The notes: a model not told the origin generated them from the sequence alone. 64,000 bases of DNA from Ignavibacteria bacterium (GCA_015657505.1 JADLKE010000002.1:190067-254066); one strand, 5' to 3'; shown: positions 8,018-52,582, numbered from the stretch's first letter. Numbers and translations are program-made.

Positions 8018-8046
8018 AGTATAAATAATAAAGGGAGACAAAAAAA

Positions 8047-8640: not shown

Positions 8641-8650
8641 CTTTTTTGTT

Positions 8651-8676
8651 CACCACTAAGGCATTAAGGACACCAA
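8651..8676. repeat. solo CACCAC-(9-nt period) repeat related to the GxxExxY cassette ends
   Basis: ttCACCACTAAGGCATTAAGGACACCAA has the same ttCACCAC head and 9-nt NNNNNNCAC periodicity as the inverted repeat at 48166..48193. I found no inverted partner nearby. Confidence 0.4.
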
Positions 8677-8692
8677 ATTAAAATAGAATTAT

Positions 8693-19134: not shown

Positions 19135-19135
19135 T

Positions 19136-29400: not shown

Positions 29401-29681
29401 AGGCTTCTCTTGTAAGTAAGCAATTCAGGATTGCCTTTCTCCATCAGCCACGACATATCGGGCGCGGACACGGAGATATAAGTGCTGCCGTTAATTTTTA
29501 TTTCCTTCGAATCGAATCCGCCGAATACATACTCAAGTTTAGTGTATCCGCTTCTTGATTCGATTACCTTTACCGTTATACCTTCACCTGCGCCGCTTTG
29601 CGGAACAACATTCGTAAATGCAGAATTTGAAAATGCAAACAGAAGCGCAAGGATAAATTGGGGAAGTAGATGTTTCATCAT
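26478..29681 (-). CDS. C25 (gingipain-family) cysteine peptidase with propeptide-like N-domain, Ig-like domains and T9SS CTD
   Basis: 1067 aa with a signal peptide and a Propeptide_C25-like N-terminus (...VLRDFRGMVVQFNPMQYNP...). The C25 core has YIILVGDVADVPT, PSDPCYV and His/Cys motifs NYIGHGSGTSW / VDVACLNGNF. C-terminal LAQNYPNPFNPVTKI...KRMILVK. Confidence 0.8.
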   Translation of the reverse strand: MMKHLLPQFILALLFAFSNSAFTNVVPQSGAGEGITVKVIESRSGYTKLEYVFGGFDSKEIKINGSTYISVSAPDMSWLMEKGNPELLTYKRSLLIPDNTAMNYRILSQETETVSTLPVMPSKGHFTRDIDPNTVPYTFSGVYTTDSYYPKDNISFDTPYVLRDFRGMVVQFNPMQYNPVQGKLKITKKITVEIFSDNNKKVVNPLLRLNPLTRVSSEFAGIYRDMFLNYGTGDSRYDSIPEPGKMLIICPTSYMTAIQPLVQWKQSRGLNVTVAEYPAATGTGNTAIKTYIQNMYNSAGSVTYIILVGDVADVPTLNGQYESAPSDPCYVKLAGNDAYPDAFISRISCQNAASVDYVAKKFIKFERDIEFGASWYTKGTGIGGPDVGGSPPYADSIRMNWVRDTLMAHGFTQVDKVNGPVATPQTLINSLNDGRYVLNYIGHGSGTSWSNTGFSVSNAYQLANGWRQPFLVDVACLNGNFTLNECLAEALLRAGDTANAKGCVTIYASSTNASWVPPCDMQMAAMRHLGRQSKKTAGAISFFGLMAAMDINGGSSGEGLKMMEQYNIFGDCSLLLTRGVPLGPAITHNQLPNTENLAGPYVVNATINTLNSGLVTGKTKLFWTRGTSFTDSIVMTNTGGFNWSASIPGNGSSAVYRYYISTIDSLGRTAKAPGGAPANYYSFTASTDNVKPVITHTGLQDVPKSVWPATVTASATDNIGIDSVWVRWYINNTSTGIKHFKLLNTSGSNFAAAFNSSQPQVNYNDSVFYRIFARDNSSMHNTDSTGVYKFKIINLVNCCIGTGSATSNYPFTTYWMDGRTQMLFTAAELTAGGAAVNSAITKIGFNVISASSQLMSGFSVKFQHTSLTSLSAWVTSGWTTGFTGTYTVPGTGWQYINMTTPYFAYDGTSNLLVEVCFDNSSYTAYSPVYSTAAPNMTRGYYTDNQTGCTMTSGSAQSNRPNVCFTLTTLTGLSGNTSAIPDKYELAQNYPNPFNPVTKINFALPKQGLVTLKIYDVLGREIRTLVNEVKQAGIYSVDFNGAEFSSGVYFYRLESKDFVDVKRMILVK

Positions 29682-29931: not shown

Positions 29932-29968
29932 ATAAAAAATCCGGTTATCGCTCTGCAACAACCGGATT
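29932..29968 (-). terminator. probable terminator of the 42282->30073 gene array
   Basis: AATCCGGTT-13 nt loop-AACCGGATT followed by T6 on the minus strand, about 105 nt after the flippase stop. Confidence 0.55.
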
Positions 29969-31539: not shown

Positions 31540-32588
31540 ATTCCGTTCTCCGAATATAATTCTTCAAGCCTCTTGTTGACACTTTCAAACGAATGATATT
31601 TTTCCGCCCACGCTCTTCCTTTTTCGGAATAATCTCTGAGAATCGATTTATTCTCGAGAATACCCGCGATAGTGTTCTTCAATCCGTCTATATCCGAGCA
31701 AATAAATGGATTTTCAGGAATGAAATTCAGATACTCCTCGTAGAATTCCGTTATTGTCGGAAGACCCATAGACAGATTTTCAATAGAGTTTTTTCCGTAT
31801 CCCGAACCGCCCATCAGACCACCGACCTGGTCAATCGCGAGGCTGCAGCCGCGTTTAATTTCGAGCAGTTTCGAGCGGGAAACGTTTTCAGCGAGAATGA
31901 ACTCGAAATCGTATTTCCTTTTCAACTCTTCGATAACCGGTATAATCCTGTCCGTTCCTTTATACAGGCGGTTTGTCGGGGAATGTATTATTTTAACCTT
32001 GTCCTCAACATTAAAACGGTATTCGAATTTCTTCACGTCAAAAGGAAAGAAAAGATAATTGATATTCTTGTGTAATCTTATGTGGTCAAACTCAACGGTA
32101 AGATTCAGCCTGCTCATTTCGTCGAGTTCGCGGAATATGCCGCGCGTTCTCAAATCGCTTCCGAAATAACAGCAGACAATTTTCTTCCCGAGTTTATTTA
32201 TCTCTTTAGCGAATCTCAGGTCCCTGTAGAAGTCCATTCCCCCGTCGAAATGATAAACGTCAAAATCATAGAGTTTATTTTCTTCGATGAACTTTTCAAT
32301 TTTGCTTGTATTTTTCAGGTCGCGGAGTTTGAAATATATTTTCTCCGCGGTATTTTTTGGCTCGTAATACTTGAGGCTTGTAATCTTTGAATCCCGCCAT
32401 TGCTTGGCAATCCTGCCCGAGGGAAGTCTGAAGCCGAGAGTGAGGTCTTCGTCGAAGTTCAGCGTGTTTTGATAAATCGTTACGAGTCTTGCATAGTGGC
32501 CGTTTTCGGACTGCATCCTCGCGAAATCAAGCGGCATTCCCGCAAAGTTCTGAGGAGCTATATGTAATATGCGCTTACTCAACGCCAA
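31536..32588 (-). CDS. putative GT-B fold glycosyltransferase
   Basis: 350 aa. C-terminal half resembles GT1/GT4 donor-binding region (YGKNSIENLSMGLPTITEF). 4-nt overlap with the flippase. Weak assignment. Confidence 0.45.
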   Translation of the reverse strand: MALSKRILHIAPQNFAGMPLDFARMQSENGHYARLVTIYQNTLNFDEDLTLGFRLPSGRIAKQWRDSKITSLKYYEPKNTAEKIYFKLRDLKNTSKIEKFIEENKLYDFDVYHFDGGMDFYRDLRFAKEINKLGKKIVCCYFGSDLRTRGIFRELDEMSRLNLTVEFDHIRLHKNINYLFFPFDVKKFEYRFNVEDKVKIIHSPTNRLYKGTDRIIPVIEELKRKYDFEFILAENVSRSKLLEIKRGCSLAIDQVGGLMGGSGYGKNSIENLSMGLPTITEFYEEYLNFIPENPFICSDIDGLKNTIAGILENKSILRDYSEKGRAWAEKYHSFESVNKRLEELYSENGI

Positions 32589-33312
32589 GCAGTCTTGATA
32601 TATTTCGGTGAAATATCAATTCTTTTTCTTCGCTGCTAATGTTTAGACTTTCGATAACAGGTATGTACATTTTCGGAAGTCCGAGATTGTAATCGCTTCC
32701 GAATATTACCCTATCAGCGCCGACAGTCTTCACGACCTGATTCACGAAATGGAATTCCCTTACGGATTCCGTTCCGAGATAAACGTTCTTCAGTCCGCTC
32801 TCTTTTACCGCGGCCGCGCAGGACGTGCAAAGCGAAGGCTGGTCGCCTCCGAGATGCGCTATTATAACGTTAAGTTTCTTTCTTTTCTTCGCCGCCTCAA
32901 TCGGGTACTCAAAACCCGCTATTTCCTGCCATCTTCCGCAGTGAACGATGACGGGGAAATTATTCTCTTCGGCAATATCAAGATACTTCGCGTATGCCTT
33001 ATCCGTCACCCTCTTTTTCTGAAACGAGGGATGTATCTTGAATGCTTTGATATCTTTCAGGTTCTTTTCAATGAATGAATCCAGTTTTTCGTCATCGGGA
33101 TTAATCCAGCAAGCGAAATGAAACGTGAACTCTTTCTGAGATTTGATTTCATTCAGAAGTTCTTCGTTCATAAAGGTGTCGCACGGCAGAGCAACGGCTG
33201 AATCAATTCCAGAGTCTTTCATAACTTTAACAGCATCGCTGACCGTCGTGGCGTAGTCAAGAAACACCCCGCTCCATTTCCCGATATGTATGTGTCCGTC
33301 AATGATCTTCAA
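32575..33312 (-). CDS. amidohydrolase-family metal-dependent hydrolase (TIM barrel)
   Basis: 245 aa with N-terminal IDGHIHIG metal motif, VIVHCG and a ...FGSDY tail. Confidence 0.65.
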   Translation of the reverse strand: MKIIDGHIHIGKWSGVFLDYATTVSDAVKVMKDSGIDSAVALPCDTFMNEELLNEIKSQKEFTFHFACWINPDDEKLDSFIEKNLKDIKAFKIHPSFQKKRVTDKAYAKYLDIAEENNFPVIVHCGRWQEIAGFEYPIEAAKKRKKLNVIIAHLGGDQPSLCTSCAAAVKESGLKNVYLGTESVREFHFVNQVVKTVGADRVIFGSDYNLGLPKMYIPVIESLNISSEEKELIFHRNISRLLGVE

Positions 33313-34222
33313 TTGAAACTGTCCCCTTTTTTAAACGTTTCTTTATAATTTATTTCCTCCAGATTTTCATCCCTTACATCGTAGTTCATTATGTAACCGT
33401 CCTTGCATCTTACGATTATGTAGTCTTCGTTTACGTCCGCGATCACTCCCGGCTTCTCACCGGAATCGCCTGCCGGATAAGGTTTCGAACGGAGTATCAG
33501 AAATTTTTTCCCGCCGAACCCGGTAAATGCCGTAGGATACGGGTGCGCGAGTGCTCTGATTTTATTATAAACCGTTTTGACGCTTTCGTTCCAGTCAATT
33601 TTCCTTTCGGCATCCGTAATCATCCTGTTCGCTTTTTCCTTGCGAGGAGGTTTCTGCTTTCTGAAAATGTCCTTCTTTCCGGAAATTAATTTTTCGAAAA
33701 CTTCAATAAGAAGGTTCGCGCAGTTGAATGAACACTTGTAATAAAGCGTGTTCACGTCGTCCTCGTCATCAATTATAACGCTCTTCTCGAGAAGTATATC
33801 ACCCGAATCCACTCCGCTGTCAATCTTGTGAATAGTCAGGTACAGAGTATCGTTTCCGTCCATAATCGCGCGCGATATGGGAGCCCTTCCCCTGTATTCA
33901 GGAAGTTTGCCGCAATGTATGTTCAGTATTCCGTATACAGGAACATTAAAGACGTCTTCTTTTATTATCTCCATGAAACCCGCGCAAATACCGGCGTCGA
34001 ACCCTGTGAATCTTTCCTTGATTTCGGAAATGCTGTCCGTCTTTATGAGTTCTATTCCGTGCGCGCCGCAGAGGCTATCAATCTTTTCGTAGAATTTATG
34101 CTTTTGATTTTCATAATCGTACGTCCTGTGAGTTACAACAAAAGCGGGGGATATTTCATCATTATAAGGTCGTTAAGGCACCTCAGGCTCATTTCTCCGT
34201 ATGCAAGAAAAAAATATTTCAT
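33309..34222 (-). CDS. ArnA-N-like sugar-nucleotide formyltransferase, interrupted by a -1 homopolymer frameshift
   Basis: The track ORF 33309..33974 begins just before the NIHCGKLPEYRGRAP active-site motif (formyltransferase HxSLLPxxRG type). The missing N-terminal domain is encoded upstream from ATG 34222 (MKYFFLAYGEMSLRCLNDLIMMKYPP). The frame is lost in the G5 run 34146-34150, and one extra base restores a 304-aa protein. Confidence 0.7.
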
Positions 34223-35184
34223 TTGTTAAAATATTTTTTGTACCATTTGTACGTTCTTAAAATTCCTTCCGTCAAATCAATCTTAGGCTTGAAGCCGAGA
34301 ACTTTCTGCGCTTTCTCTATGCTCGGTATCCTTAGTTCGACGTCAACGTAATTCTTCGGTATGTATTTAATCTTCGATTTCGTTCCCGTCAGAAGCACAA
34401 TTTTTTCGGCAAGCGAACTGATTGTTATCGTGCCTTTTGGATTTCCAATATTGTATATTTCACCAACCGCCTTTTTGTTAGTCAGGCAAAGAATAGTTCC
34501 CTCAATCATGTCATCGATATAGCACCACGCTCTTATCTGGTCGCCGTCGCCGTGTATATGTATGTCTTTATTAAGAACCGCGTTCTTTATAAAAATCTGA
34601 ATGGCGCCTTCGCCAATCTGCCCCGGTCCGTAAATGTTGTAAGGTCTGATTGACACGGCGGGATATCCTCTCGTCTTATAATAACTGTAAAGCAAATGCT
34701 CGCCGGAAACCTTGCTTATAGAATAAGTCCATCTCCCTTCACCGACCGGAGCGAGGTTCGTGTTCGATTTCTCGCTTGATTTATAGGCGTACGCGCCGAG
34801 GACTTCGCTGGTAGAAAAATTGACGACCCGTTCGAGTTTGCCGCTGTATTTTTCGAGAGCCCTGACGAAATTAAACGTGCCGAGTATGTTTACTTCCATG
34901 GTTTTTACCGGATTGTTTATCACTGTATCGACGCCCGCTATCGCGGCGAGATGCAGGGCAATCTGCGGCTTGAAATCTTCAGTTGCTTTCTTCAACGCTT
35001 CGTAATCGGTTATGTCGCCGTTGACGATTTTGACGTTCTTTAGATTAATCTTCTTATACTTGAGTGAATCCCTCGCGAAAATGTCGTAAATCAGTATTTC
35101 ATTTTCCTTGCTGAACAACTCTGCGAGCCTGCTGCCTATGAATCCGCCTCCGCCCGTTAGCAGTATTCTTTTATTCTTAATCAT
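34219..35184 (-). CDS. NAD-dependent SDR, ArnA-C-like UDP-glucuronate (oxidative) decarboxylase/epimerase family
   Basis: 321 aa with TGGGGFIGSRL, STSEVLG and RWTYSISK (compare the RWIYSVSK catalytic region of E. coli ArnA as I recall it). Confidence 0.65.
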   Translation of the reverse strand: MIKNKRILLTGGGGFIGSRLAELFSKENEILIYDIFARDSLKYKKINLKNVKIVNGDITDYEALKKATEDFKPQIALHLAAIAGVDTVINNPVKTMEVNILGTFNFVRALEKYSGKLERVVNFSTSEVLGAYAYKSSEKSNTNLAPVGEGRWTYSISKVSGEHLLYSYYKTRGYPAVSIRPYNIYGPGQIGEGAIQIFIKNAVLNKDIHIHGDGDQIRAWCYIDDMIEGTILCLTNKKAVGEIYNIGNPKGTITISSLAEKIVLLTGTKSKIKYIPKNYVDVELRIPSIEKAQKVLGFKPKIDLTEGILRTYKWYKKYFNK

Positions 35185-37862: not shown

Positions 37863-38759
37863 TTAGAAATTATAGCCGAGCGAAATCGAATTCCCCGAGC
37901 CGAATCCAATCGAATACGGCTGGAAAGCGTAGTCAACGTATAATGACTTGTACTTAAGACCAAGCCCCGCGGAGAAACTTTTATTTTCGTAACCAGTCTG
38001 ATAACCGCCTCTTAAAAATATGAAATCCTTGTAACCTCCCTCGATCCCTATGTGCGTGTGTAAAGCGCCCCCGTCAAGAACTTTAAAACCGTCTAGCGCG
38101 CCTGTAATAGAAAAGTTGTCCTTCCTGTACATGTAACTCGCGCCAAGCCTAAGCGATGTCGGCAGTTTCGTCTCGGAATTTAAAAGCGCGTTCATAGAGC
38201 CAACATTGGCCAGGACAACGGCGAATGAAACATTGTTGATTTTATAATTCGCGCCGAAATCAAGACCGTAACCTGACGCCTCATCGATGTATATTTTCTC
38301 GTAAAGCATTTTTACCGTAATCCCCGCGGTGAAATTGTTCTGGATATCATAGCATAGGCTTATGCCTCCCGAAAAGTTATCCGAGTTGAATGTTTCTATC
38401 GGAGCGCCGGGATTATTCCTGACTTCGATGTCGCTGACGGTTGTCTTCAGGAGACCGATTCCAATTCCGAATTTATTCAGCCTGAATTTAGCGCCAACAA
38501 AATTCGTCGTCATATCCATCATTGTCTTATTGAACATTGCGGTAACGTTTCCGTTTTCGGTGGCGTTTACTCTGGCAGGATTGTATATGTAAGCTGTCCC
38601 GTCGTCCGCGAGCGACACGAATGCTTCGCCCATCGCGATGGAGCGGGCTCCTATACCGAGTTTCAGGAAAGACAATCCCGTATTTCCCGCGCCGTCATTT
38701 TGTCCGAAAGTTATTCCCGCAAAGAATAATATCAGAGTCGTTATGAAAATTTTTCGCAT
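37863..38759 (-). CDS. PorV/PorQ-family-like outer-membrane beta-barrel
   Basis: 298 aa with a signal peptide and the N-terminal motif GLSFLKLGIGARSIAMGEAFVSLADDGTAYIYNPA. Alternating beta-strand pattern and a terminal Phe. Confidence 0.55.
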   Translation of the reverse strand: MRKIFITTLILFFAGITFGQNDGAGNTGLSFLKLGIGARSIAMGEAFVSLADDGTAYIYNPARVNATENGNVTAMFNKTMMDMTTNFVGAKFRLNKFGIGIGLLKTTVSDIEVRNNPGAPIETFNSDNFSGGISLCYDIQNNFTAGITVKMLYEKIYIDEASGYGLDFGANYKINNVSFAVVLANVGSMNALLNSETKLPTSLRLGASYMYRKDNFSITGALDGFKVLDGGALHTHIGIEGGYKDFIFLRGGYQTGYENKSFSAGLGLKYKSLYVDYAFQPYSIGFGSGNSISLGYNF

Positions 38760-38792
38760 ATAAATAAACTAATACTTCAAGTTATGAATAAA

Positions 38793-39839
38793 TTATTTGA
38801 ATTTAAAAGCAATTCCGATATTCTGAGCAGGCTTGTGCGTGTACGGCTCAATCTGGAAACTGTAATCCAGACCGATATTAATGTCCTTCGTGAACGATTT
38901 TGTCAGGCCTATACCCGCTCCGGGCTGAATGTTTCCCCAGAAGTCATCAGATTTAAAGTCCATTCTGTCAATGCCCGCGCGTATTTTCACGTAATCGTTC
39001 AGGTTTATTTCGCCTCCTACCTTGAGCGCGAAATTGTAATTTCTCTTGCTGTATGACTTAACGCCGAGAGTATCTGTCGTCTCGAACCTCGGATTCACGT
39101 AAGTATCAAGACCGACAGAAACCAGACCGAGTTTCTTCGGCAGGTTGTAAGTTCCTCCGAACGCTACGAGAACGGGAAATTTTTCTTCAGATGTTGTTCC
39201 GCTCGTTCCGTAAACATTCTGTCCCGTAGTCTCCCATTTATACTTCACTCCAAGGTCCCTGACTGCCAGACCGAACGACAAGTCCTTGCTCGCTAAGTAA
39301 GTAAAGCCTGCGTCAAAACCCACGCTCGTTGTAGTTACTTCTTCATAAAGTTTAGAGTAATACAGTTTAAATCCCACGCCTATGGATAAATCGGGCGCTA
39401 CGAGGATGCTCATACCCATAAGGAATTGATTTTCATAAGTTCCGAGCATTCCTATCGAACGGGCGTCATTGTCTCTTCCGTCAATATCCGAAACCCCCGC
39501 GTTAATCCAGGAAAGACTGATGCCAGCGGTCTGCTTGCCCCCTGACAGTGAAAACTTTTTCGCGAATGAAACGAAGTTTAGTTTTCTGTCAAGACTCAGG
39601 AATGTATAACCGAGATTCACGACTCCGTTTTCCTGAAAACAACTGAGAGACGGATTGTAGTATCCTGACACGTCGCCGTACCTGTCCGAAACGAGCGTGT
39701 TTCCCATTGAAAGACCTCTCGCGCCGAAGCCCATCCTGGCAAAACTTCCGGGGTAACTGCCCAATTGAGCGTTCGCGCCTGAGAATGCCGCCAGAATCAG
39801 TAATATCGCTAAGTATTTTTTCATATTCTGAAAACTCAT
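38793..39839 (-). CDS. second PorV/PorQ-like outer-membrane beta-barrel (more divergent)
   Basis: 348 aa with a signal peptide and FARMGFGARGLSMGNTLVSDRYGDVSGYYNPS, a beta-barrel-like sequence. Confidence 0.4.
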   Translation of the reverse strand: MSFQNMKKYLAILLILAAFSGANAQLGSYPGSFARMGFGARGLSMGNTLVSDRYGDVSGYYNPSLSCFQENGVVNLGYTFLSLDRKLNFVSFAKKFSLSGGKQTAGISLSWINAGVSDIDGRDNDARSIGMLGTYENQFLMGMSILVAPDLSIGVGFKLYYSKLYEEVTTTSVGFDAGFTYLASKDLSFGLAVRDLGVKYKWETTGQNVYGTSGTTSEEKFPVLVAFGGTYNLPKKLGLVSVGLDTYVNPRFETTDTLGVKSYSKRNYNFALKVGGEINLNDYVKIRAGIDRMDFKSDDFWGNIQPGAGIGLTKSFTKDINIGLDYSFQIEPYTHKPAQNIGIAFKFK

Positions 39840-39846
39840 TAAATTT

Positions 39847-41460
39847 TTATTTCATTAAAATAACTTTTCCCCAGAAAGGAGTCTCGTCGTCAACCTCTAT
39901 TCTGTAGAAATAGACAGCGTTTGCCGGTATGTAACCGTCGTCGTTCCTTCCGTCCCATATCGCGAAGTTTACGTCGTTGTTTGTCCTCGTCGCGTTCTGT
40001 ATAACCGTTCTGACGGGATTCATTCCGAAGTCGAAAATCTTTATTGTTACTTTCGAAACAGGTTTGCTTGTCTTGAAGAACAGCCGCGTTACTTCATTGT
40101 TCGGTGAAAAAGGATTCGGAGCCGCGTACGTTTCCGAAGTAGATGTCAAATTGCCGCAAGCCCTGAAAATCTTCCAGGGAGAAGACCACGGAGATACTGT
40201 CAATTTTGTGCGCAGCATTCCGTCAGCGCTTCCGAAATACAATGTATCGTTAATGTAATTCCCCGAATAAAAACTGCTTGACCTGCATAAATCCTTCGAT
40301 ACGGGATCGGCAATCAGCGAAGGTTTCGACCAGTCGAATTTTCCGAAATTGGCGCGCCACATTCCCCCGTCAGTGTAACCGAATACGATTGAATCCTTCG
40401 AACTTATTCCGTTCGGTCTGTAGCCGCCGAGCGTGTATTCCCAGGAATACCCGTTATTCGTGGAATAACTCAACGCGTCCACTTCGTTATTATCATTGGC
40501 TTTTCTCGATGCCGCCCACCAGACTTCCCTGCTTCCGTACTTCTGTACGTGAAATTTCACAACGAAATTCCCCGAAACCCTGTTTGTTCCGCTTCCAGAG
40601 TTCTGAAAATTATACTTCCTCCAACTTACACCCCAGTCTCTCGAAATGTTAATTCCGTTCGCGGAGCCGGCGAGTAGAGTTGAATCGTTCACCGCTACAA
40701 CCGAAAAGAGCCTGTGATTCAGGTTTATATTCGGATTCAAAACGAAGTTATAAACTCCTCCCGTGTATATGCTGTCGAGGTCGTCCGGAGGCAGCAGCAC
40801 TCTTTGCCAGGATACCCCGTAATCAGTGGATTTTCTGAGACCTCCGGCGAAACTCGTAATCCAGATAGTGTAATTTAAAGTATCGCCCTTTGTACGGGAA
40901 ATTGCAATATCGTAAGACAGATTCTGCTGAGGTACGACTACGGGCAGTGCGTGAATGTTGTTCAATCCGTATGTAACAACCGTATCGGTCAATCCGTCCA
41001 TCGGCTGCGGATATGAATTCCAGGAACGGCCGTAATCAGTCGAGACCTTGATTCCCGTTCCGGTAGCGACATTTTCACCGTCAATTAACTCACTTATCGC
41101 GGTAGCCGCGACGAACACTCTGTCTTTTACGTTCAAACCCGCGACGTCGTCCGTCCCGAAAGGTTCGGACTCGATGTAATAATCAAAACTGTTGAACCTG
41201 TCCGTCGTGCGCATCAGTCCGCTTCCCGTTCCGAACCAAACAGTATCACCCGAAAAAAAGATGTCCGTAACGAAGTTGCTTATCGGGCATTTAGAATTCT
41301 TCGGATTCACGACGACCGCCGTAAGTTTCGCGTTCTTGCCGGAAGTCTTAACGAAAACATTTTTGAACTTCCCCAGCGAGAAATTTTCGGGTATTGTCTG
41401 CGAAAACAGGTTGACTCCCGCGGTTAAAATCACGAATAAAAATATTTTTCTTAATATCAT
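39847..41460 (-). CDS. Asp-box (BNR-like) beta-propeller protein with CTD/FlgD-Ig-like C-terminal tail
   Basis: 537 aa with a signal peptide and the motifs STDYGRSW, STDYGVSW, SRDWGVSW, STNNGYSW. Tail APNPFSPNNE...VYFYRIEV...KVILMK. Confidence 0.6.
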   Translation of the reverse strand: MILRKIFLFVILTAGVNLFSQTIPENFSLGKFKNVFVKTSGKNAKLTAVVVNPKNSKCPISNFVTDIFFSGDTVWFGTGSGLMRTTDRFNSFDYYIESEPFGTDDVAGLNVKDRVFVAATAISELIDGENVATGTGIKVSTDYGRSWNSYPQPMDGLTDTVVTYGLNNIHALPVVVPQQNLSYDIAISRTKGDTLNYTIWITSFAGGLRKSTDYGVSWQRVLLPPDDLDSIYTGGVYNFVLNPNINLNHRLFSVVAVNDSTLLAGSANGINISRDWGVSWRKYNFQNSGSGTNRVSGNFVVKFHVQKYGSREVWWAASRKANDNNEVDALSYSTNNGYSWEYTLGGYRPNGISSKDSIVFGYTDGGMWRANFGKFDWSKPSLIADPVSKDLCRSSSFYSGNYINDTLYFGSADGMLRTKLTVSPWSSPWKIFRACGNLTSTSETYAAPNPFSPNNEVTRLFFKTSKPVSKVTIKIFDFGMNPVRTVIQNATRTNNDVNFAIWDGRNDDGYIPANAVYFYRIEVDDETPFWGKVILMK

Positions 41461-41478
41461 TTTAAATTCATTTTTCTT

Positions 41479-42282
41479 TTAATTTGGCCTGACAAATTTT
41501 ATGCTGTCTTTGTAAGTCGTGCTGAACACGTCCGAACGGTCCAGCGCGGTGAACCAGTACTTATAATAACCGTACGAAGAATCGGGTTCGGCATAAGATA
41601 CGGTGTTAGTATATGAATAAACATTATTTCCGTTGTACGTCATAGCGTACCTTCCTATGAAATTCCCGCTCGGTCTGTAAGCGTCCATGTAAACGAACGC
41701 GATATCGCAGGGTCCGTCCGCGTCTGTCGCTGTAAGAGAAAGAGTGAGATTTACGGAACCGGATAACGGTCTGACGACGCTGTCGGGTATGTCCGGGTTT
41801 GAAACAACGGGAGCAACATTCGCTGTGTTTTGCACATAAAATGAACTACTCAGCATGTTGCTGCTCAATCCCTGCTCGTTAGTTGCAATTACCTGAACAG
41901 TATAATCTCCGACTAGCAGACAGGAAACGCTGCCAAGGGTAAGAGTAGCGGCGTATTTCTTGCCTCCCGCGGTGTCGTAAGCATATACGAGATTTTGCGC
42001 GCCGTAACTGTTCAATTTCGGGTCCGTTACAGTGCAGGTAACGCCTGTCAAAGGCGTGCCGTTGTTGACGTCCGCGACTGCGGAAATGTAAAATTTAATT
42101 ACAGGTGAACCTGATGTAGTTTTCACGGTATCAGGCACCAGTACAAGATTCGAAAGTATCGGGGAATCGTATGTAGGATCAATAACGCCGTCATCCTTTT
42201 TCTCGCATGAAAATAACACCACGCAAGCCGATAGTAAAAATAAGGCGAAACTTGCTCTTTTTAACATTTTAATTTTATTCAA
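41479..42282 (-). CDS. lipoprotein with Ig-like domains, unknown function
   Basis: 267 aa with lipobox LLSACVVLFSC followed by EKKDD. No family recognised. Confidence 0.5.
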   Translation of the reverse strand: MNKIKMLKRASFALFLLSACVVLFSCEKKDDGVIDPTYDSPILSNLVLVPDTVKTTSGSPVIKFYISAVADVNNGTPLTGVTCTVTDPKLNSYGAQNLVYAYDTAGGKKYAATLTLGSVSCLLVGDYTVQVIATNEQGLSSNMLSSSFYVQNTANVAPVVSNPDIPDSVVRPLSGSVNLTLSLTATDADGPCDIAFVYMDAYRPSGNFIGRYAMTYNGNNVYSYTNTVSYAEPDSSYGYYKYWFTALDRSDVFSTTYKDSIKFVRPN

Positions 42283-46859: not shown

Positions 46860-48149
46860 CTATCTTAGCGAATGCACTTTATTCAAGACGGGAACATCAA
46901 TTTCATCTTTGGGTATTCTTTTTACGAATTCCTCTCTGAATTTTTTCACGGTCCATTTAACCGGCCAGGCGGCGGCGTCACCGAGCGCGCAGATTGTATT
47001 GCCCTCAATGTTTTGAGCAACCGATGTGAGCAGTTCGAGATCGTTAAGCCTTCCCTTGCCGTCATCAATTCTTTTCAGAACTCTCAAAAGCCATCCGGTC
47101 CCTTCCCTGCAGGGCGTGCATTGTCCGCAGGATTCGTGATAATAAAATTTCGCGATTCTTATTAGTACTTTAAGAATATCCGTATCCTCGTCCATAACCA
47201 TTACGCCTGCCGTTCCTATCGAAGAACCGAATTCCTTGAGACTTTCATTGTCCATGTTCGCTTTCAGGCATTCCTCTTTCGTGAGAGGCGGCATCGATGA
47301 GCCGCCGGGTATAACCATTTTGATTTCTTTGCCGCCGGTAATTCCGCCGCAGTAATCTTCGATTATTTTCATAAGCGGCGTGCCTGTCGGAAGTTCATAG
47401 ACTCCCGGTTTGTTCACGTGACCGCTCACCCCGAACAGGAGCGTGCCGGGATGTTTCGGCGCGCCTATTTTCGAGAACCACTCTGCTCCGTTCTTGATTA
47501 TTTCGGGAACGTTCGCGAGAGTTTCGATATTGTTTATAGTCGTCGGGCATCCCCACAGTCCGTTAGCCGCGGGAAACGGAGGCTTGACTCTCGGATAGCC
47601 GCGCTTGCCTTCGATTGAATTCATAAGCGCCGATTCTTCGCCGCAGATGTAAGCTCCCGCTCCGCGGTGAATGTAAACATCGGTTGAAAAATCTGTGCCG
47701 AGTATGTTTTTCCCTATGTACCCTTTTTTATAAGCATCGTCAATCGCAGCCTGAAGCAGATTTATCCATTTGTAATACTCGCCTCTTATGTAAACGTATG
47801 CGGATTTTATTCCCATCGCGTAACAAGCAAGAAGAACTCCTTCGATAAACTGGTGCGGATTTTTCTCAAATATTTCCCTGTCCTTGAAACTTCCTGGTTC
47901 CGACTCATCGCCGTTACAGCACAGGTATTTAGGCTTGTCGCTGTTCTTGGGCATGAATGTCCACTTAAGACCCGTCGGAAAACAGGCGCCGCCCCTGCCT
48001 CTGAGGTTTGAGTTCTTCACCTCGTTAGTTACTTCATCGGGGCTCATTTCTTTCAAAGCCTTCCTGAATGCGGAATAACCGCCGTTCGACTCGTAAACAC
48101 CTATCCTGTGTAAATCGGGTATATCTTTTAAAATTATTTTCATTTTCAT
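46860..48149 (-). CDS. nuoF: NADH-quinone oxidoreductase subunit F
   Basis: 429 aa with GRGGACFPTG (FMN site), GAGAYICGEESAL and ESCGQCTPCREG (4Fe-4S). Confidence 0.96.
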   Translation of the reverse strand: MKMKIILKDIPDLHRIGVYESNGGYSAFRKALKEMSPDEVTNEVKNSNLRGRGGACFPTGLKWTFMPKNSDKPKYLCCNGDESEPGSFKDREIFEKNPHQFIEGVLLACYAMGIKSAYVYIRGEYYKWINLLQAAIDDAYKKGYIGKNILGTDFSTDVYIHRGAGAYICGEESALMNSIEGKRGYPRVKPPFPAANGLWGCPTTINNIETLANVPEIIKNGAEWFSKIGAPKHPGTLLFGVSGHVNKPGVYELPTGTPLMKIIEDYCGGITGGKEIKMVIPGGSSMPPLTKEECLKANMDNESLKEFGSSIGTAGVMVMDEDTDILKVLIRIAKFYYHESCGQCTPCREGTGWLLRVLKRIDDGKGRLNDLELLTSVAQNIEGNTICALGDAAAWPVKWTVKKFREEFVKRIPKDEIDVPVLNKVHSLR

Positions 48150-48165
48150 TTCTTGTTTTATTATT

Positions 48166-48193
48166 CACCACAGAGAACACAGAGTACACAGAG
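48166..48193. repeat. inverted repeat, left copy
   Basis: CACCACAGAGAACACAGAGTACACAGAG, with a 9-nt CACAGAGNN periodicity. Confidence 0.85.
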
Positions 48194-48194
48194 A

Positions 48195-48566
48195 TTACAC
48201 GACTCTTCTTTTTATTCCATCCGTCAATATCTTTGTGTTGAAATTTATTAATAGCCCTGTTCTGATATTTGCTAGTTTTAAATATGATATTAACTGGGCC
48301 TCATGAATCGGCATCAAGGATTCCACTGATTTTATTTCAACGATAACATCCTTATTTACAAGTACATCCAATCTGTAACCGCAATCTAATTTAACTTCCT
48401 TATAAACCAAAGGTATCGGTTTTTGCCGTTCAACTATAAATCCTGCCTGAATCAATTCATAACACAGGCATTCCTCATAAGCACTTTCAAGTAAACCAGG
48501 TCCCAATGCTTTATGAACATTAATCGCACAACCGATTATCTTTTCAGTTAATGGATCCGTGTCCAT
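48195..48566 (-). CDS. GxxExxY family protein (PD-(D/E)XK-like)
   Basis: 123 aa with IIGCAINVHKALGPGLLESAYEECLCYEL...YRLDVLVNKDVIVEIKSV...PIHEAQLISYLKL...GLLINF, the classic family pattern. Confidence 0.9.
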   Translation of the reverse strand: MDTDPLTEKIIGCAINVHKALGPGLLESAYEECLCYELIQAGFIVERQKPIPLVYKEVKLDCGYRLDVLVNKDVIVEIKSVESLMPIHEAQLISYLKLANIRTGLLINFNTKILTDGIKRRVV

Positions 48567-48587
48567 ATTTCTGCTCTTTATATAAAT

Positions 48588-49103
48588 TTAGTTTTTCTCT
48601 GTGGTCTCTGTGTTCTCTGTGGTGATACTTTTTCCGAATTTTTTCAGCAAATTATCGATTATGACAGTATCAAGGTTTTCGTAATATTCCTTGTTGTTCA
48701 CCTGCATCATCGGCGCAGTCGCGCAGGAGCCGAGGCATTCTACTTCTTCAATCGTGAACATTCCGTCTGCAGTCGTTTCGTTGTTTTTTATTCCGAGTTT
48801 CTCCGATACGTAATTATACAGTTCATACCCGCCCCTCAGCATGCAGGAAACGTTCGTGCATATCTGCAGGTGATATTTTCCTCTCGGCTGGTTGTTGAAC
48901 ATCGTATAAAACGACACAACACCGAGAATGTGCTCATAAGGAACGCCGAGCAAATCACCCGCATATTTCATCGAGTCCGGCGAAATCCATCCTTCCTTTT
49001 CCTGAACCATCCAGAGCACTGGAAGCAGCGCCGCGCGGGCATCGGGGTAATGCGACTTGATCTCTTCTATTCTTTTTAATTCTTCTTCGTTGAATAACTG
49101 CAT
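48588..49103 (-). CDS. nuoE: NADH-quinone oxidoreductase subunit E
   Basis: 171 aa with the 2Fe-2S ligands CTNVSC...CLGSC. The C-terminal ...TTENTETTEKN is encoded by the repeat. Confidence 0.93.
   Translation of the reverse strand: MQLFNEEELKRIEEIKSHYPDARAALLPVLWMVQEKEGWISPDSMKYAGDLLGVPYEHILGVVSFYTMFNNQPRGKYHLQICTNVSCMLRGGYELYNYVSEKLGIKNNETTADGMFTIEEVECLGSCATAPMMQVNNKEYYENLDTVIIDNLLKKFGKSITTENTETTEKN
48597..48624. repeat. inverted repeat, right copy (inside the 3' end of nuoE)
   Basis: CTCTGTGGTCTCTGTGTTCTCTGTGGTG is the reverse complement of the left copy with 2 mismatches. Confidence 0.85.
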
Positions 49104-49127
49104 TCGGATTAATAATATGTTTTCAAA

Positions 49128-50405
49128 TTATTTGTCGGCTTCTCCCATAACGGGATCAATTCCGCCGATTATAACGACTGAATCGGAAATAAGACTGTCT
49201 TTAAGCATAACGGGAATTGCCTGAAGATTGCAGAATGACGGCGAGTGTATCTTTGTCCTGAAAGGCTTGCCGCTGCCGTCGCTTACTATATAAAAACCAA
49301 GTTCGCCTTTTGACGATTCAACGGCGCTGTACGACTCTCCGACAGGCGGATTCTGCCCGAAATTAATCAGCATGAAATCGTATATCAATTCTTCCATTTT
49401 TGTGTATATCTTTTCCTTGCGTGGAAGAGATTTCTTCGGCGATAAAGCGTTCACGGGTCCCTTCGGCATTTTTTCAATGCACTGCCTTATTATTTTTGCG
49501 GACTGGTACATTTCCTCGAACCTAATCCAGAACCTTGCGAGACTGTCGCTTTCGGTTGTCGTCGGCACGTCAAAATCAACTTTATCATACGCGAGATACG
49601 GACTGTCTTTTCTTAAATCGCAATCGACACCTGCCGCGCGAAGTATCGGTCCCGTAATCCCGTAATTAATCACGTCTTCCTTCGACATGTATCCGATTCC
49701 CTCAAGCCTGTCGACGAATACCCTGTTCCTCTCTATGATATCCCGCATCTCTTTCAGATAACCCGGGAACTCGTCCGTGAACTTATGAATCGCGGCGATT
49801 GCCTCGTCCGTGATGTCCTGAGCCACTCCTCCGATTCTCGAATAAGAAGTCGTGAATCTGACGCCGATATACATGTCATAAATATCGAGTATTTTTTCCC
49901 TTTCGCGCATTGCCCATAAGAAAGGCGTCAGCCCTCCAGTGTCCATCACGGTCGTACCGTACGCGATCAAGTGCGATTGTATTCTGCCGAGTTCGGCCGA
50001 GAGAGTCCTGAGATACTTTGACCTTTCGGGAATCTCGAGATTCAGAAGTTTTTCCACTGCGAGTGTGTACGCGATGTTATTAGCGACGGGCTGAAGATAA
50101 TCAAGCCTGTCGGTATGCGGAATGAACTCGTGATACGACATGTTCTCCGCGAGTTTCTCATAACCCCTGTGAAGATACCCGAGGTCGGGAACCGCCTTCT
50201 TTATGGTTTCCCCGTCGAGACTCAGCAGCAGCCTTAAGACTCCGTGTGTAGCGGGATGCTGCGGTCCCATGTTAAGCACCATTTCATTCTCAAGCGCATC
50301 ATTAAATTCAAGGCTCAAATCCTGTGACTCAAGCGCTTCCAGAATTTTTGATTTTGGAATGCTCGGGTCGTTTTTCTTCAGTTTTTCGTATACGGTGTGA
50401 GGCAT
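49128..50405 (-). CDS. nuoD: NADH-quinone oxidoreductase subunit D
   Basis: 425 aa with NMGPQHPATHGVLRL and a C-terminal DPVMGEADK-type ending. Confidence 0.96.
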   Translation of the reverse strand: MPHTVYEKLKKNDPSIPKSKILEALESQDLSLEFNDALENEMVLNMGPQHPATHGVLRLLLSLDGETIKKAVPDLGYLHRGYEKLAENMSYHEFIPHTDRLDYLQPVANNIAYTLAVEKLLNLEIPERSKYLRTLSAELGRIQSHLIAYGTTVMDTGGLTPFLWAMREREKILDIYDMYIGVRFTTSYSRIGGVAQDITDEAIAAIHKFTDEFPGYLKEMRDIIERNRVFVDRLEGIGYMSKEDVINYGITGPILRAAGVDCDLRKDSPYLAYDKVDFDVPTTTESDSLARFWIRFEEMYQSAKIIRQCIEKMPKGPVNALSPKKSLPRKEKIYTKMEELIYDFMLINFGQNPPVGESYSAVESSKGELGFYIVSDGSGKPFRTKIHSPSFCNLQAIPVMLKDSLISDSVVIIGGIDPVMGEADK

Positions 50406-50409
50406 AATT

Positions 50410-50895
50410 CTATTTTTTCGGCAAATTAATTGAACCCGGAATTCCCATCAGAGGAAAATCTTTTCTCAAAGGATAATATTCAAACTCTTCGGGCATGTAA
50501 ATTCTTCTTAAGTCGGGATGCCCCGTGAAGACTATTCCAAACATATCATAGGCTTCCCTTTCATACCAGTTAACTGATTTCCACAGGTTCGTCAACGTAG
50601 GAGTTTCCGGTTTCTTATTGTCTTCTATGATGACTTTTACGAAAATCCTGTCCCTGTACTTAAGCGAATACAAACTGTAAATCACTTCGAATCTGTTTTT
50701 CTTCGTAAACCTGTCAACGCCTACCGTGTCCCTGCACTGTTCGAACGAGATTGACCCCTCATTTTTCAGTACTTCACATATTTTCAGAACATTTTCAGGA
50801 GACGCTATGATTCCGGGCGTACCATTGACGTCGTAAAACTCGACACCTAAACCGTTAAGTTTCTCTTTTATAATATTTAATCTCTCTTCGTTCAT
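50410..50895 (-). CDS. nuoC: NADH-quinone oxidoreductase subunit C
   Basis: WYEREAYDMFGIVFTGHPDLRRI motif. I prefer the ATG at 50895 (MNEERL...). The track start 50967 adds a hydrophobic AT-rich leader. Confidence 0.9.
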   Translation of the reverse strand: MNEERLNIIKEKLNGLGVEFYDVNGTPGIIASPENVLKICEVLKNEGSISFEQCRDTVGVDRFTKKNRFEVIYSLYSLKYRDRIFVKVIIEDNKKPETPTLTNLWKSVNWYEREAYDMFGIVFTGHPDLRRIYMPEEFEYYPLRKDFPLMGIPGSINLPKK

Positions 50896-51115
50896 AACGT
50901 AATTTCGTAAAAAATAGGTTATAAGGCGTATAATTGAAATAACAAAATAAGGAAACTGAAAATTCAAAGAGCACAGGAAAATTTGTATTTAATTTTGTTT
51001 TGATTGCGAGTGAATTTCATTGCGATGTTTCCTTATCCGGCATCCGGAAATCACAGATTCATAAAAATAATGGATTTTATTGATTCCAAATTTGTTATCC
51101 GAATAAAGAGGAAAA

Positions 51116-52582
51116 ATGAAAAACACAATAATTTTACTGGCTTTTCTGATGCTGGCGGTTACCGCCTGCGCTCAGAATCCGAACGTGCAGTTAATAGACG
51201 CTTTTCCTGGTCTGACATTCAATAAACCGCTTCATTTCACTCATGCGGGTGACGGCACGAACAGGAATTTCGTCGTTCAGCAGGACGGAAAAATCATCGT
51301 CTTCGCAAACGACTCGAACACCGCGACTTCCAAAGTCTTCCTGAATATTTCGAATAAAATATCATCGTCTTCGGGCGAAGAGGGTTTGCTCGGACTGGCA
51401 TTTCACCCTAACTATCAGTCGAACGGTTATTTTTACGTGAATTACACCGCTCCGTCTCCGCTGCGTACGGTCATTGCAAGGTATAAAGTAAAAACGTCCG
51501 ACCCTGATAAAGCGGACTCTCTCAGCGAATATAAAATACTTGAAATCAATCAGCCGTATTCCAACCATAACGGCGGCACGGTGATGTTTGGTCTCGACGG
51601 TTTTCTTTATATAGGTATGGGTGACGGCGGAAGCGGAGGCGACCCGCAGAACAATGCTCAGAATCTTCAGGTGTTGCTCGGGAAAATGCTTCGCATAAAC
51701 ATTAATGATACGACAGCAACAAAACGATATGTCATACCGAATACAAATCCGTTTTACAACAATCCTTCAGCGGGACGCGAAGAGATATACGCCTGGGGTC
51801 TGAGGAATCCGTGGAAGTTCACGCAGGACGCCGTAACCGGATTGATTTACGTCGGTGACGTCGGGCAGAACAACTGGGAAGAAATCGACATTCTGCAAAA
51901 CGGAAAGAACTACGGTTGGCGGGTTATGGAAGGATTCGCTTGTTATAATCCTTCCTCGGGATGCGATACATCGGGAAAAACACTGCCGATAAAGGTTTAC
52001 GGCCATACAAGCGGCAACTGCTCCGTAACAGGCGGCGCTGTTTACAGGGGCTTACGCAGACCCGAACTAAACGGAGCCTATATATACGGCGATTACTGCT
52101 CGGGCATGGTATGGATGCTTCGATACAATAACGGAACTGTTACTTCGGACTCGCTTCTTGTTCAGAAGAATATCCTGATCAGCGGTATAGGAACGGATAA
52201 AAATAATGAAATGTATTTCATTCACACCGCGGCGACAGGAAAAATCTACAGGTTCAACAAGAGCCCCCTTGCCGGAATTATAAATAATCAGAATCCATCG
52301 CCCGGCAACTTTTATTTGAGTCAGAATTATCCGAATCCGTTCAATCCCGCGACTAAAATAAATTTTTCCGTTCCTAAACGGGTTTTCGTCTCGCTCAATA
52401 TTTATAATTCATCAGGCAAACTTGTAAGGACGCTGGTCAATACTTTTCTTCAGAAAGGAGAGTACGAATTTATCTGGAACGGAACCGACGATTTCAATGC
52501 TCAACAGTCGAGCGGTGTATATTTTTGTAAAATGTCCGCGGAAGATTACGGCGAAACAAAGAAAATGGTGCTGATGAAATAA
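51116..52582 (+). CDS. PQQ-dependent sugar (glucose/sorbosone) dehydrogenase-like beta-propeller with T9SS CTD
   Basis: 488 aa with GLLGLAFHPNY, HNGGTVMFGLDG, GDGGSGGDPQNNAQN, AWGLRNPW and the C-terminal LSQNYPNPFNPATKI...KKMVLMK. Confidence 0.85.
   Translation: MKNTIILLAFLMLAVTACAQNPNVQLIDAFPGLTFNKPLHFTHAGDGTNRNFVVQQDGKIIVFANDSNTATSKVFLNISNKISSSSGEEGLLGLAFHPNYQSNGYFYVNYTAPSPLRTVIARYKVKTSDPDKADSLSEYKILEINQPYSNHNGGTVMFGLDGFLYIGMGDGGSGGDPQNNAQNLQVLLGKMLRININDTTATKRYVIPNTNPFYNNPSAGREEIYAWGLRNPWKFTQDAVTGLIYVGDVGQNNWEEIDILQNGKNYGWRVMEGFACYNPSSGCDTSGKTLPIKVYGHTSGNCSVTGGAVYRGLRRPELNGAYIYGDYCSGMVWMLRYNNGTVTSDSLLVQKNILISGIGTDKNNEMYFIHTAATGKIYRFNKSPLAGIINNQNPSPGNFYLSQNYPNPFNPATKINFSVPKRVFVSLNIYNSSGKLVRTLVNTFLQKGEYEFIWNGTDDFNAQQSSGVYFCKMSAEDYGETKKMVLMK

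Follow-up and report, generated by a model that had tools for sequence, protein, structure and literature searches.

A conserved gene block of Ignavibacteria encodes a propeller with a distinct T9SS-type tail, two PorV/PorQ-family barrels and a lipoprotein, and may be a functional counterpart of PorQ-PorZ

How a type IX secretion system (T9SS) attaches its cargo is known chiefly from Porphyromonas and close relatives of it, where the genes for PorU, PorV, PorQ and PorZ and those of the Vim/Wbp pathway are scattered around the genome. We describe here a compact block of four genes from an Ignavibacteria bacterium, at positions 37863-42282 of a 64,000-nucleotide stretch of DNA (GCA_015657505.1, JADLKE010000002.1:190067-254066), hereafter called the window. 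The block encodes a lipoprotein, a β-propeller protein with a T9SS-type C-terminal domain (CTD), and two barrels of the PorV/PorQ family, named barrel 2 and barrel 1 in the order of their genes. In this conserved module, gene neighbourhood links a propeller that bears a CTD with PorQ-like barrels and a VimA-like enzyme across deep divergence; the propeller genes mostly go by the name "hypothetical". The products would form a barrel-docked surface complex, exported through the T9SS, resembling PorQ-PorZ of Porphyromonas gingivalis in function and coupled to the synthesis of an anchor glycolipid. We judge this reading to have an even chance of being correct.

The four open reading frames are co-directional, as had been annotated; they lie on the minus strand and are separated by 18, 7 and 33 nucleotides (Table 1). 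Relatives of the propeller protein exceed 1,100 at E≤1e-3 (90%-identity clusters), and the best 120 of them are 54-98% identical to it in alignments that, with few exceptions, cover 90% or more of the query. The matches listed with an organism come from Ignavibacteria or from an unclassified Bacteroidetes/Bacteroidota metagenome-assembled genome; the source names among the matches listed are "hypothetical protein", one "FlgD immunoglobulin-like domain containing protein" excepted. One genome per species was scanned for synteny, giving 80 loci (Ignavibacteria, Melioribacteraceae, Rosettibacter); neighbouring genes were counted by tblastn with the window proteins, and the denominators below are the loci with enough flanking DNA. 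In 67 of 69 loci, over identities from 98% down to 34%, the propeller gene is followed by barrel 2 and then by barrel 1; the exceptions are L076 (no barrels) and L054. The first-pass annotation had proposed a co-occurrence check of the four-gene block in related genomes; the propeller and both barrels prove to be co-inherited as a unit across deep divergence in Ignavibacteria.

The 537-residue protein had been described as a single propeller, which its AlphaFold2 (AF2) model supports (pLDDT 84, pTM 0.75). About 30 strands, consistent with seven blades, span residues 54-432 and are followed by a lower-confidence linker and a β-sandwich at residues 444-534. Three of the four SxDxGxSW Asp-boxes claimed earlier are strict (STDYGRSW, STDYGVSW, SRDWGVSW), whereas the fourth, STNNGYSW, carries an Asn in place of the Asp. 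Family matches are weak (BNR, Sortilin, F510_1955). The signal peptide ends before an invariant Gln, Q21. An invariant or near-invariant Gln follows the predicted signal-peptidase I site in the propeller (LFS/Q), barrel 2 (ANA/Q) and barrel 1 (TFG/Q), the codons lying at 41398-41400 for Q21, 39765-39767 for Q25 and 38700-38702 for Q20. These residues agree with the "Q-rule" described for Bacteroidetes, not for the whole Fibrobacteres-Chlorobi-Bacteroidetes (FCB) group (PMC5837995).

The tail of the propeller protein sets it apart from the other exported proteins of the window. Seven of these end in canonical ..L.QNYPNPFN[PS].. tails, in line with the seven cargo proteins with an NYPNPFNP-type CTD counted earlier, and all six that were scanned with NCBIfam pass the type-A CTD model TIGR04183 (30-48 bits, cutoff 23). 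The propeller tail contains the string quoted for it, APNPFSPNNE..VYFYRIEV..KVILMK, and falls below the cutoffs of both CTD models, with 16.3 bits on TIGR04183 and 15.1 on the type-B model TIGR04131 (cutoff 35); just 10 of 45 propeller orthologues match TIGR04183 even at E≤0.01. Two hidden Markov models (HMMs) were built, one from 32 canonical Ignavibacteria CTDs and a reciprocal one from propeller tails, each tail being assigned to its class by homology of the protein body. The canonical model gives 100-145 bits to canonical tails, 22-48 to orthologous propeller tails and 23.0 to the window copy; the reciprocal model gives 124-160 bits to propeller tails and at most 54 to canonical ones. The window tail is recognized by TYAAPNPFSP..E, WDGRNDDG..ANAVYFYR and WGKVILMK and is devoid of L.QNYPNPFNP. 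Across the family the hallmarks read TYA[AY]PNPFSP..E..RI.Y, an insert of FlgD_ig flavour, WDG.[ND]D.G..VANGVYFYR, and a terminal WGK[IV].V[LM][QK]. Judged by its sequence, the propeller tail is a discrete, family-specific CTD subtype, closest to type A and clearly separated from the cargo CTDs, so that the divergence proposed earlier holds.

An alignment with the seven canonical CTDs had been proposed to see whether the tail is devoid of the cleavage-site region. The tail aligns with them end to end, at 20-35% identity, and shares the landmarks PNPF, an.I.IYD strand, VRT, a [WF].G turn, GVYFYR and K.ILxK. This alignment includes the PNPF region, and the tail is a homologue of ordinary CTDs. 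Two further features of the tail were set aside as uninformative. The CTD is more conserved than the body in the propeller family (0.73 vs 0.64), which was considered as evidence for retention; in those 12 genomes the contrast is even greater for an ordinary 306-residue cargo family (0.65 vs 0.48), so tail conservation does not discriminate. The tail matches the CTD segment of the PorU model (NF033707 positions 996-1079, E 2e-6), a generic likeness, as canonical cargo matches the same segment harder, at 35-50 bits.

Two observations concern the occurrence of this type of domain elsewhere. The CTD part of the family profile (~450-531) is found in 11-15 tandem stretches in giant proteins of 1,750-2,460 residues (P0260, P0266, P0279, P0289, P0360), so that the FlgD_ig-like β-sandwich also exists as an internal repeat. 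Locus L073 carries a 530-residue paralogous propeller with a canonical QNYPNPFNP tail (~7351-8940), just upstream of the lipoprotein and the special-tail propeller; this pair of propellers offers a natural comparison of what the two tail types do.

Both barrels had been annotated as PorV/PorQ-like, and this description fits the data. Barrel 1 reaches 132 bits on NF033709, the NCBIfam model of the PorV/PorQ family (curated cutoff 90 bits), and its orthologues match the same model in 33 of 33 cases (best E 1e-49). A profile of these 33 orthologues aligns full length with PorV of Flavobacterium johnsoniae (6H3I_F, E 7.9e-26). The peptide strings quoted earlier are all present, FLKLGIGARSIAMGEAFVSLADDGTAYIYNPA in barrel 1 and ARMGFGARGLSMGNTLVSD..YYNPS in barrel 2, and the hatch motif of barrel 1 reads LKLGIGARSIAMGEA..YNPA. 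Barrel 2 stays under the cutoff of NF033709 (77.2 bits, E 1.7e-21); all 46 of its orthologues match that model at E≤1e-5 (best E 9.5e-32), some of them named PorV/PorQ family by NCBI. Aligned with each other, the two barrel families prove to be paralogues (hhalign probability 99.8%, 26% identity), and barrel 2 is thus a divergent member of the PorV/PorQ family rather than a non-member. Its AF2 model (pLDDT 82) displays a FadL-type barrel (14 strands) with an N-terminal hatch (GFGARGLSMGN..YYNPS); the strand number was estimated from the DSSP string, not from coordinates. Foldseek places FadL and TodX first by E-value (~1e-10 to 1e-8) and superposes barrel 2 on PorV 8GL6_F (TM-score 0.60/0.58) and 6H3I_F, with a TM-score range of 0.57-0.60. 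Searches of the Protein Data Bank (PDB) sequences with single barrel 1, single barrel 2 and the barrel-2 profile returned no matches. Generic 8-12-stranded outer membrane proteins devoid of PorV/PorQ similarity, the outcome named beforehand as contrary to a PorZ-like role, are not what was found. Among the equivalog models, PorQ (NF033711) scores best for both barrels, with 74.5 bits for barrel 1 and 51.7 for barrel 2, ahead of PorV2 (NF052325; 70.6 and 48.0) and PorV (NF033710; 47.6 and 22.4), all far under the respective cutoffs of 220, 325 and 250 bits.

The first gene of the block encodes the lipoprotein, which probably starts at the ATG at 42267 rather than at the upstream TTG. From this ATG, the precursor is printed as MLKRASF...LFSC followed by EKKDDG, with the lipobox LFS/C and then EKKDDGVIDP. 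The lipobox Cys and the motif CEKK.D.VIDP are conserved in ~46 orthologues, and the segment after the Cys is among the best-conserved parts of the protein. A tblastn match lies upstream of the propeller gene in 55 of 74 loci. The window protein matches no Pfam or NCBIfam family. The Ig-like fold once attributed to it is not supported: the window copy has no Pfam match, and among 35 orthologues only scattered weak Ig/PKD matches occur, from which no consistent Pfam family emerged.

In P. gingivalis, the CTDs of PorZ and PorU are kept and the proteins are held by PorQ and PorV (PMC10947112, PMC12365241), in agreement with the background given by the first-pass annotation; PorU and PorZ are anchored through PorV and PorQ (PMC12365241). 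By analogy, the window propeller would cross the outer membrane through the T9SS, and its divergent CTD would act as a docking domain for a cognate barrel instead of a disposable signal, mirroring the PorZ-PorQ and PorU-PorV pairs. Barrel 2, which always follows the propeller gene, is the most likely docking partner, and the second barrel and the lipoprotein would complete the complex. We regard such a docking of the propeller on its cognate barrel through the CTD, as PorZ docks on PorQ, as probable; the non-cleaved CTDs of PorZ and PorU provide a parallel to the propeller tail, not a proof.

The block continues past position 37863 with seven further genes on the same strand, up to a hairpin followed by a T-run, and is likely the 5' end of an 11-gene transcription unit of ~12.3 kb (42282..~29938). 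The seven downstream genes overlap or are separated by at most 38 nucleotides, apart from an apparent break at the frameshifted formyltransferase. A 237-nucleotide AT-rich gap lies upstream of the lipoprotein gene. A sigma-70 promoter scan gave a count no better than in shuffled sequence. Directly following barrel 1 and a glycosyltransferase of the GT-C type, a 321-residue protein matches TIGR03019 (pepcterm_femAB) with E 1e-7 and 31 bits (cutoff 260). A profile of 30 of its orthologues matches an aminoacyl-tRNA-dependent peptide synthase (9WQW, E 3e-8) and FemX (E 3e-3). The protein is, by these matches, a Fem-family enzyme and VimA-like. For VimA itself, Veith et al. 2020 (PMC7468200) report matches to TIGR03019 and to a domain of N-acetyltransferases; VimA decides between Ser and Gly on the sugar that links cargo to anionic lipopolysaccharide (A-LPS), and the deacetylase VimE acts ahead of it (PMC7468200). 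Downstream in the unit, a 350-residue protein is read as a divergent glycosyltransferase of the GT-B type because its family profile matches the C-terminal domain of the mannosyltransferase PimB' (E 2e-3) and, weakly, PglA. The Fem-type transferase, a hydrolase, the GT-B enzyme, a flippase and a GT-C enzyme acting at the periplasmic face could plausibly, between them, make a sugar that bears an amino acid and is attached to a lipid or lipopolysaccharide (LPS) acceptor.

In Ignavibacteria, these genes are frequently linked to the propeller. The Fem-like gene follows barrel 1 in 43 of 58 loci, and genes for GT-B, Wzx and GT-C lie within 10 kb of the propeller in 24, 20 and 19 of 43 loci, respectively. 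Genes for the short-chain dehydrogenase/reductase (SDR), the formyltransferase and the amidohydrolase are restricted to loci of the clade above 54% identity. The GT-C gene keeps its position in that clade and is located further downstream in some distant loci; in distant loci, the GT-B gene is conserved together with the VimA-like gene (42-48% identity).

Taken as a pathway, the enzymes of the operon would make an amino-acid-bearing sugar, flip it and attach it to an acceptor, either a lipid or LPS. As they are encoded in the same operon, the complex most likely presents their glycolipid: it would bind it and expose it at the surface as an acceptor for the sortase-type anchoring of ordinary CTD cargo. 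Propeller, barrels and lipoprotein would then be the functional counterpart of PorQ-PorZ together with the Vim pathway. A PorZ-like delivery function of the complex is advanced tentatively, as a possibility falling somewhat short of even.

Further insight comes from longer relatives of the propeller. A profile search of a 50%-identity library of 1.84 billion representatives retrieves 266 representative proteins at E≤1e-30, among which are forms of 490-560 residues and a set of double-propeller proteins of 780-900 residues, which the profile matches in several stretches. The window protein aligns, tail included, with residues 295-783 of the double-propeller protein P0296 (E 4e-37), and its N-terminal part aligns also with the first propeller of P0296. 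Four of 11 double-propeller relatives match the NCBIfam PorZ model (NF052228, length 757) in the CTD segment only (~641-756, E 4e-8 to 5e-4); the six scanned canonical cargo proteins of the window have no PorZ match listed at E≤1e-5 (1e-3 for the C25 protease). At L086, L088, L089 and L090 (complete Zixibacteria genome), a double propeller is followed by a barrel of 322-336 residues and then by one of 299-312 residues, the latter scoring 186-217 bits on the barrel-1 HMM. At L085 and at L087 (Zixibacteria), a double propeller precedes one PorQ-like barrel of 306-308 residues and a SIS-domain gene; the barrel-2 HMM gives the sole barrel of such loci a slightly better score than the barrel-1 HMM does. 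No barrel lies downstream of a shorter, 470-residue propeller relative (L091). With double propellers recurring in such contexts, the unit of propeller(s), CTD subtype and PorQ-like barrel(s) is old and extends across FCB phyla, the Ignavibacteria form being a single-propeller version with an added lipoprotein.

Some features around these relatives may be mentioned. The SIS-domain (sugar isomerase) genes lie directly 3' of the PorQ-like barrel (L085 11278-11838; L087 9213-9782) and add one more sugar-metabolism gene to the recurrent neighbours of the module. A 1170-residue C25 peptidase is encoded 4 kb upstream of the double-propeller/barrel pair of L085 (777-4289); its catalytic region matches positions 367-732 of the PorU sortase model (E 5e-14), and it is possibly a PorU beside the module in an FCB lineage. 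A 644-residue propeller relative (P0386) is deposited under the mussel Potamilus streckersoni (KAK3604865.1, 1.2-Mb contig) and is probably a bacterial sequence in a eukaryote assembly.

The first-pass annotation favoured a PorZ-like role of the propeller over a cargo role. Near-invariant synteny, the same-tail double propellers with their PorQ-like barrels and the VimA-like gene of the operon speak for a PorQ/PorZ-like pairing. The observations that weigh against a PorZ-like complex begin with the propeller. It is one propeller, not the two of PorZ. Foldseek against the PDB does rank the solved PorZ structure (5M11) first, with E 2.8e-10, but at a query TM-score of 0.36, an rmsd of 16.6 and 12% identity; this E-value is tied with those of the sensor propellers BT4663 and BT4673 of hybrid two-component systems and of GH74, at a TM-score of 0.36, and the best single-domain superposition is with Ycf48 (target TM-score 0.65). 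The window propeller has no match to the PorZ model at E≤0.1, and one of 45 close orthologues matches it (E 0.0099). PDB searches with phmmer and with a 45-sequence family profile contain no PorZ at E≤10. From one end to the other, the tail is a homologue of CTDs that are cleaved, which goes part of the way towards what the first-pass annotation had named as evidence against its proposal, and the subtype may be the common FlgD_ig-type CTD of some lineages. For both barrels, the scores on the PorQ, PorV and PorV2 equivalog models stay far under the cutoffs. Neither the Zixibacteria loci nor 15 of 58 loci in the synteny count have the VimA-like and glycosyltransferase genes. Finally, the window holds no PorU sortase and no core T9SS gene.

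Table 1. Positions of the block and of the predicted downstream genes in the window
Feature	Position	Strand	Remarks
Lipoprotein, 267 aa from TTG start	41479..42282	-	likely start ATG 42267
Secreted BNR/Asp-box propeller with C-terminal T9SS-type domain, 537 aa	39847..41460	-	
Propeller domain, residues ~55-435, roughly seven blades	40156..41298	-	AF2 model, ~30 strands
Family-specific CTD, residues ~444-537	39850..40131	-	AF2 β-sandwich 444-534
Barrel 2, divergent PorV/PorQ-family FadL-fold, 348 aa	38793..39839	-	7 nt past propeller gene
Barrel 1, PorV/PorQ-family, 298 aa	37863..38759	-	NF033709 132 bits
ArnT-like GT-C glycosyltransferase, PMT_2 family, 558 aa	36148..37824	-	PF13231 E 6e-18; ArnT model E 1e-15
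Fem-family VimA-like aminoacyl-transferase, 321 aa	35192..36157	-	Acetyltransf_6 (PF13480) 28.7 bits, cutoff 22
SDR sugar-nucleotide dehydratase/decarboxylase	34219..35184	-	resembles ArnA C-terminal domain, UDP-xylose synthase
Formyltransferase, frameshifted	33309..34222	-	resembles ArnA N-terminal domain, Fmt
Amidohydro_2 hydrolase, candidate deacylase or deformylase	32575..33312	-	PF04909 E 8e-19
Divergent GT-B glycosyltransferase, 350 aa	31536..32588	-	without library family; read from family profile
Wzx-type polysaccharide flippase, 488 aa	30073..31539	-	Polysacc_synt_3, Polysacc_synt
Terminator-like hairpin, 14-bp stem then T-run	29938..29968	-	likely transcription-unit end

Three other explanations of the block have been weighed. 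The first, which we hold to be unlikely though the most serious of the three, considers the propeller as an ordinary T9SS substrate, glycan-binding or hydrolytic, served by dedicated shuttle or anchor barrels. It would have no role in attaching other cargo, and the sugar genes would belong to a separate pathway of LPS or O-antigen modification that happens to share the operon. A genetic linkage between a substrate and its cognate shuttle barrel is common, and such substrate-shuttle gene pairs are known for type-B substrates (PMC12618676). The weak matches of the propeller to the F510_1955 glycosylhydrolase family, GH74 and Ycf48 and the loci devoid of VimA-like linkage (the 15 of 58 and those of Zixibacteria) count in its favour. 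The same genome, moreover, provides an example of a BNR propeller with a CTD as ordinary cargo, encoded at 59048-60418 of the window; a propeller joined to a CTD is thus an ordinary cargo design here, and architecture alone proves nothing. On the other hand, the propeller orthologues are 55-78% identical across Ignavibacteria, with one copy per locus studied, and such very high conservation in a single copy is more in keeping with a core component than with a niche enzyme. In type, the barrels are PorV/PorQ and not PorP/SprF, the block is co-transcribed with the VimA-like enzyme in 43 of 58 loci, and the tails of the double-propeller relatives match the CTD part of the PorZ model. The cargo propeller at 59048-60418 (minus strand, 456 residues) is BNR/Ycf48-like and has a type-A CTD that is canonical throughout; its small family of paralogous cargo proteins is also found at L009 and L022, L009 holding 3-4 copies, at least three of them in tandem.

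According to a second explanation, which appears improbable, the operon is a device for the modification of glycolipid or lipid A and for its export. The FadL-type barrels would gate or hold a lipid-linked sugar, maybe aminoacylated or resembling 4-amino-4-deoxy-L-arabinose, which the propeller and the lipoprotein would process, while the T9SS would only export the propeller. FadL and TodX, the top structural matches of barrel 2, transport hydrophobic substrates, and the operon holds an ArnT-like GT-C enzyme, an ArnA-like SDR, a formyltransferase, an amidohydrolase and a Wzx flippase. PorV, as Chen et al. are said to have reported in 2011, was first named LptO after a defect in LPS deacylation, which we count on the same side. 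Nevertheless, the barrels match the PorV/PorQ models far better than any transporter family, the triad of propeller and barrels persists without the SDR, formyltransferase and amidohydrolase genes outside the clade above 54% identity, and a dedicated CTD subtype is left unexplained.

A third explanation, in which the barrels and the lipoprotein are BamG/BamH-like accessory subunits of a Bacteroidota-type barrel assembly machinery (BAM) complex, has been given hardly any weight: Foldseek does list BAM-complex chains of Bacteroides (9HIV_F, presumably BamG, TM-score 0.48), F. johnsoniae and P. gingivalis, and the lipoprotein segment after the Cys is well conserved, but PorV is the better structural match (TM-score 0.60 vs 0.48), neither bamA nor bamD is nearby, and the NCBIfam BamG model (NF053685) matches neither window barrel, a single one of the 33 orthologues of barrel 1 (E 1.9e-6) and not one of the 46 of barrel 2, by which the BamG/BamH identity is rejected. 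Its attraction had been that BamG is a 14-stranded FadL-family barrel that binds BamH's N-terminal part (PMC12611786).

If the propeller does dock and serve as in PorQ-PorZ, a broader proposal can be drawn, which is more daring and in our view rather unlikely in its full extent. The Ignavibacteria block would be a minimal, ancestral-looking attachment module, with a double-propeller version in Zixibacteria and other FCB members, and one locus would provide the glycolipid that serves as acceptor as well as the machine presenting it to the T9SS sortase. A "WGK-type" CTD would stay docked in a PorQ-like barrel, accompanied by a second PorQ/PorV-like barrel and the lipoprotein. The Ignavibacteria operon would encode the complete anchor pathway, the anchor being a sugar aminoacylated by the VimA-like Fem enzyme, flipped by Wzx and put on lipid A/LPS by the ArnT-like GT-C enzyme.

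Several observations concern the sugar genes and the remaining T9SS-related genes of the window. The frameshift of the formyltransferase lies near 34140-34180, where residues 1-34 and 11-305 of the L008 orthologue match different frames (tblastn); a run of five C lies inside the region of frame overlap, and the frameshift is either an assembly error or a real pseudogene. A UDP-glucose 6-dehydrogenase and a second UDP-glucuronate decarboxylase-like SDR are encoded at 18190-20467, adjoined by GalE at 20491-21465; they are possible suppliers of UDP-glucuronate-derived precursors for the sugar pathway of the operon. Just beyond the operon terminator, a 1067-residue C25 protein (26478-29681, minus strand) carries the pro-domain of gingipains as well as a canonical CTD. 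Its closest match is RgpB (4IEF, E 3e-54), and it represents a gingipain-R homologue in an Ignavibacteria genome; its identification as PorU is rejected, as it scores 50 bits on the PorU model (cutoff 420) and the best-scoring stretch of that model is the CTD segment. A 309-residue "choice-of-anchor J" cargo protein (14961-15890, minus strand) has orthologues at L001 (3240-4160) and 11 other loci, which in L001 and L002 lie inside the nuo operon, between nuoC and nuoB. The window copy is ~30 kb from the nuo genes (46860-50967), where nuoC is adjoined by a different CTD protein, PQQ-dehydrogenase-like (51116-52582).

The literature consulted contains no paper joining Ignavibacteria, "type IX secretion" and PorV, and Ignavibacteria or Ignavibacterium appear together with T9SS only in passing mentions; one paper remarks that BLAST suggests a possible T9SS in Ignavibacteria. 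Should the proposed complex exist, it would outline how PorZ-PorQ could have evolved, by way of forms with one and with two propellers. It would furthermore define a CTD subtype in which docking and cleavage can be studied, and a single operon in which the synthesis and the presentation of an anchor glycolipid can be tested together. If it does not, the block still adds a clean new case in which a substrate and PorV-family barrels of its own are encoded together.

Compared with known systems, the block resembles BamG-BamH in having a FadL-fold barrel and a probable surface lipoprotein, and differs from it in the absence of a BamG match and of BAM genes in its context. With the pairs of type-B substrates and PorP/SprF barrels, such as SprB-SprF (Paillat et al. 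2025), it shares a substrate of specialised CTD linked to its own barrel; its barrels, however, belong to the PorV/PorQ family, and its tail is closest to type A (15.1 against a cutoff of 35 on type B). PorV of F. johnsoniae (6H3I, 8GL6) is matched full length by the barrel-1 profile and shares the hatch motif and the FadL-type fold, with TM-scores of 0.57-0.60 for barrel 2. The window barrels are nevertheless shorter (298 and 348 residues vs ~400), with PorV scores of 47.6 and 22.4 vs 250, and are encoded beside one dedicated substrate, whereas PorV serves all cargo.

The Vim/Wbp pathway (VimA, VimE and VimF of P. gingivalis and T. forsythia) finds an echo in a Fem-type enzyme combining TIGR03019 with an acetyltransferase domain of the GNAT type, which is accompanied in the window by a hydrolase as possible deacylase, a glycosyltransferase and a flippase. 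Unlike in that pathway, the hydrolase is of the Amidohydro_2 family and not CE4, and the sugar genes (SDR, formyltransferase, GT-C) are Arn-like and not Wbp-like.

The most instructive comparison is with PorQ-PorZ. PorZ, reportedly described by Lasica et al. in 2016 as two tandem β-propellers followed by a CTD (~750-780 residues), has two propellers in 776 residues, whereas the window protein has one, of the BNR type, in 537. The window block adds a second barrel and a lipoprotein, with PorQ scores of 74.5 and 51.7 vs 220 and no PorZ match in sequence. PorZ is bound to a PorQ barrel, binds A-LPS and passes it on to PorU; the window system shows in this respect the adjacency of its genes to PorQ-like barrels and to a VimA-like pathway. 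To our knowledge, porQ and porZ are not adjacent in P. gingivalis, whereas the propeller and barrel genes are adjacent in the window. Common to both are a propeller with an atypical CTD, exported or predicted to be exported through the T9SS, a barrel of the PorV/PorQ family and a linkage to VimA or a VimA-like enzyme. PorQ is the best equivalog of the barrels and PorZ the rank-1 Foldseek match of the propeller, tied with other propellers, and the double-propeller relatives are of PorZ size, with tails that match the CTD part of the PorZ model.

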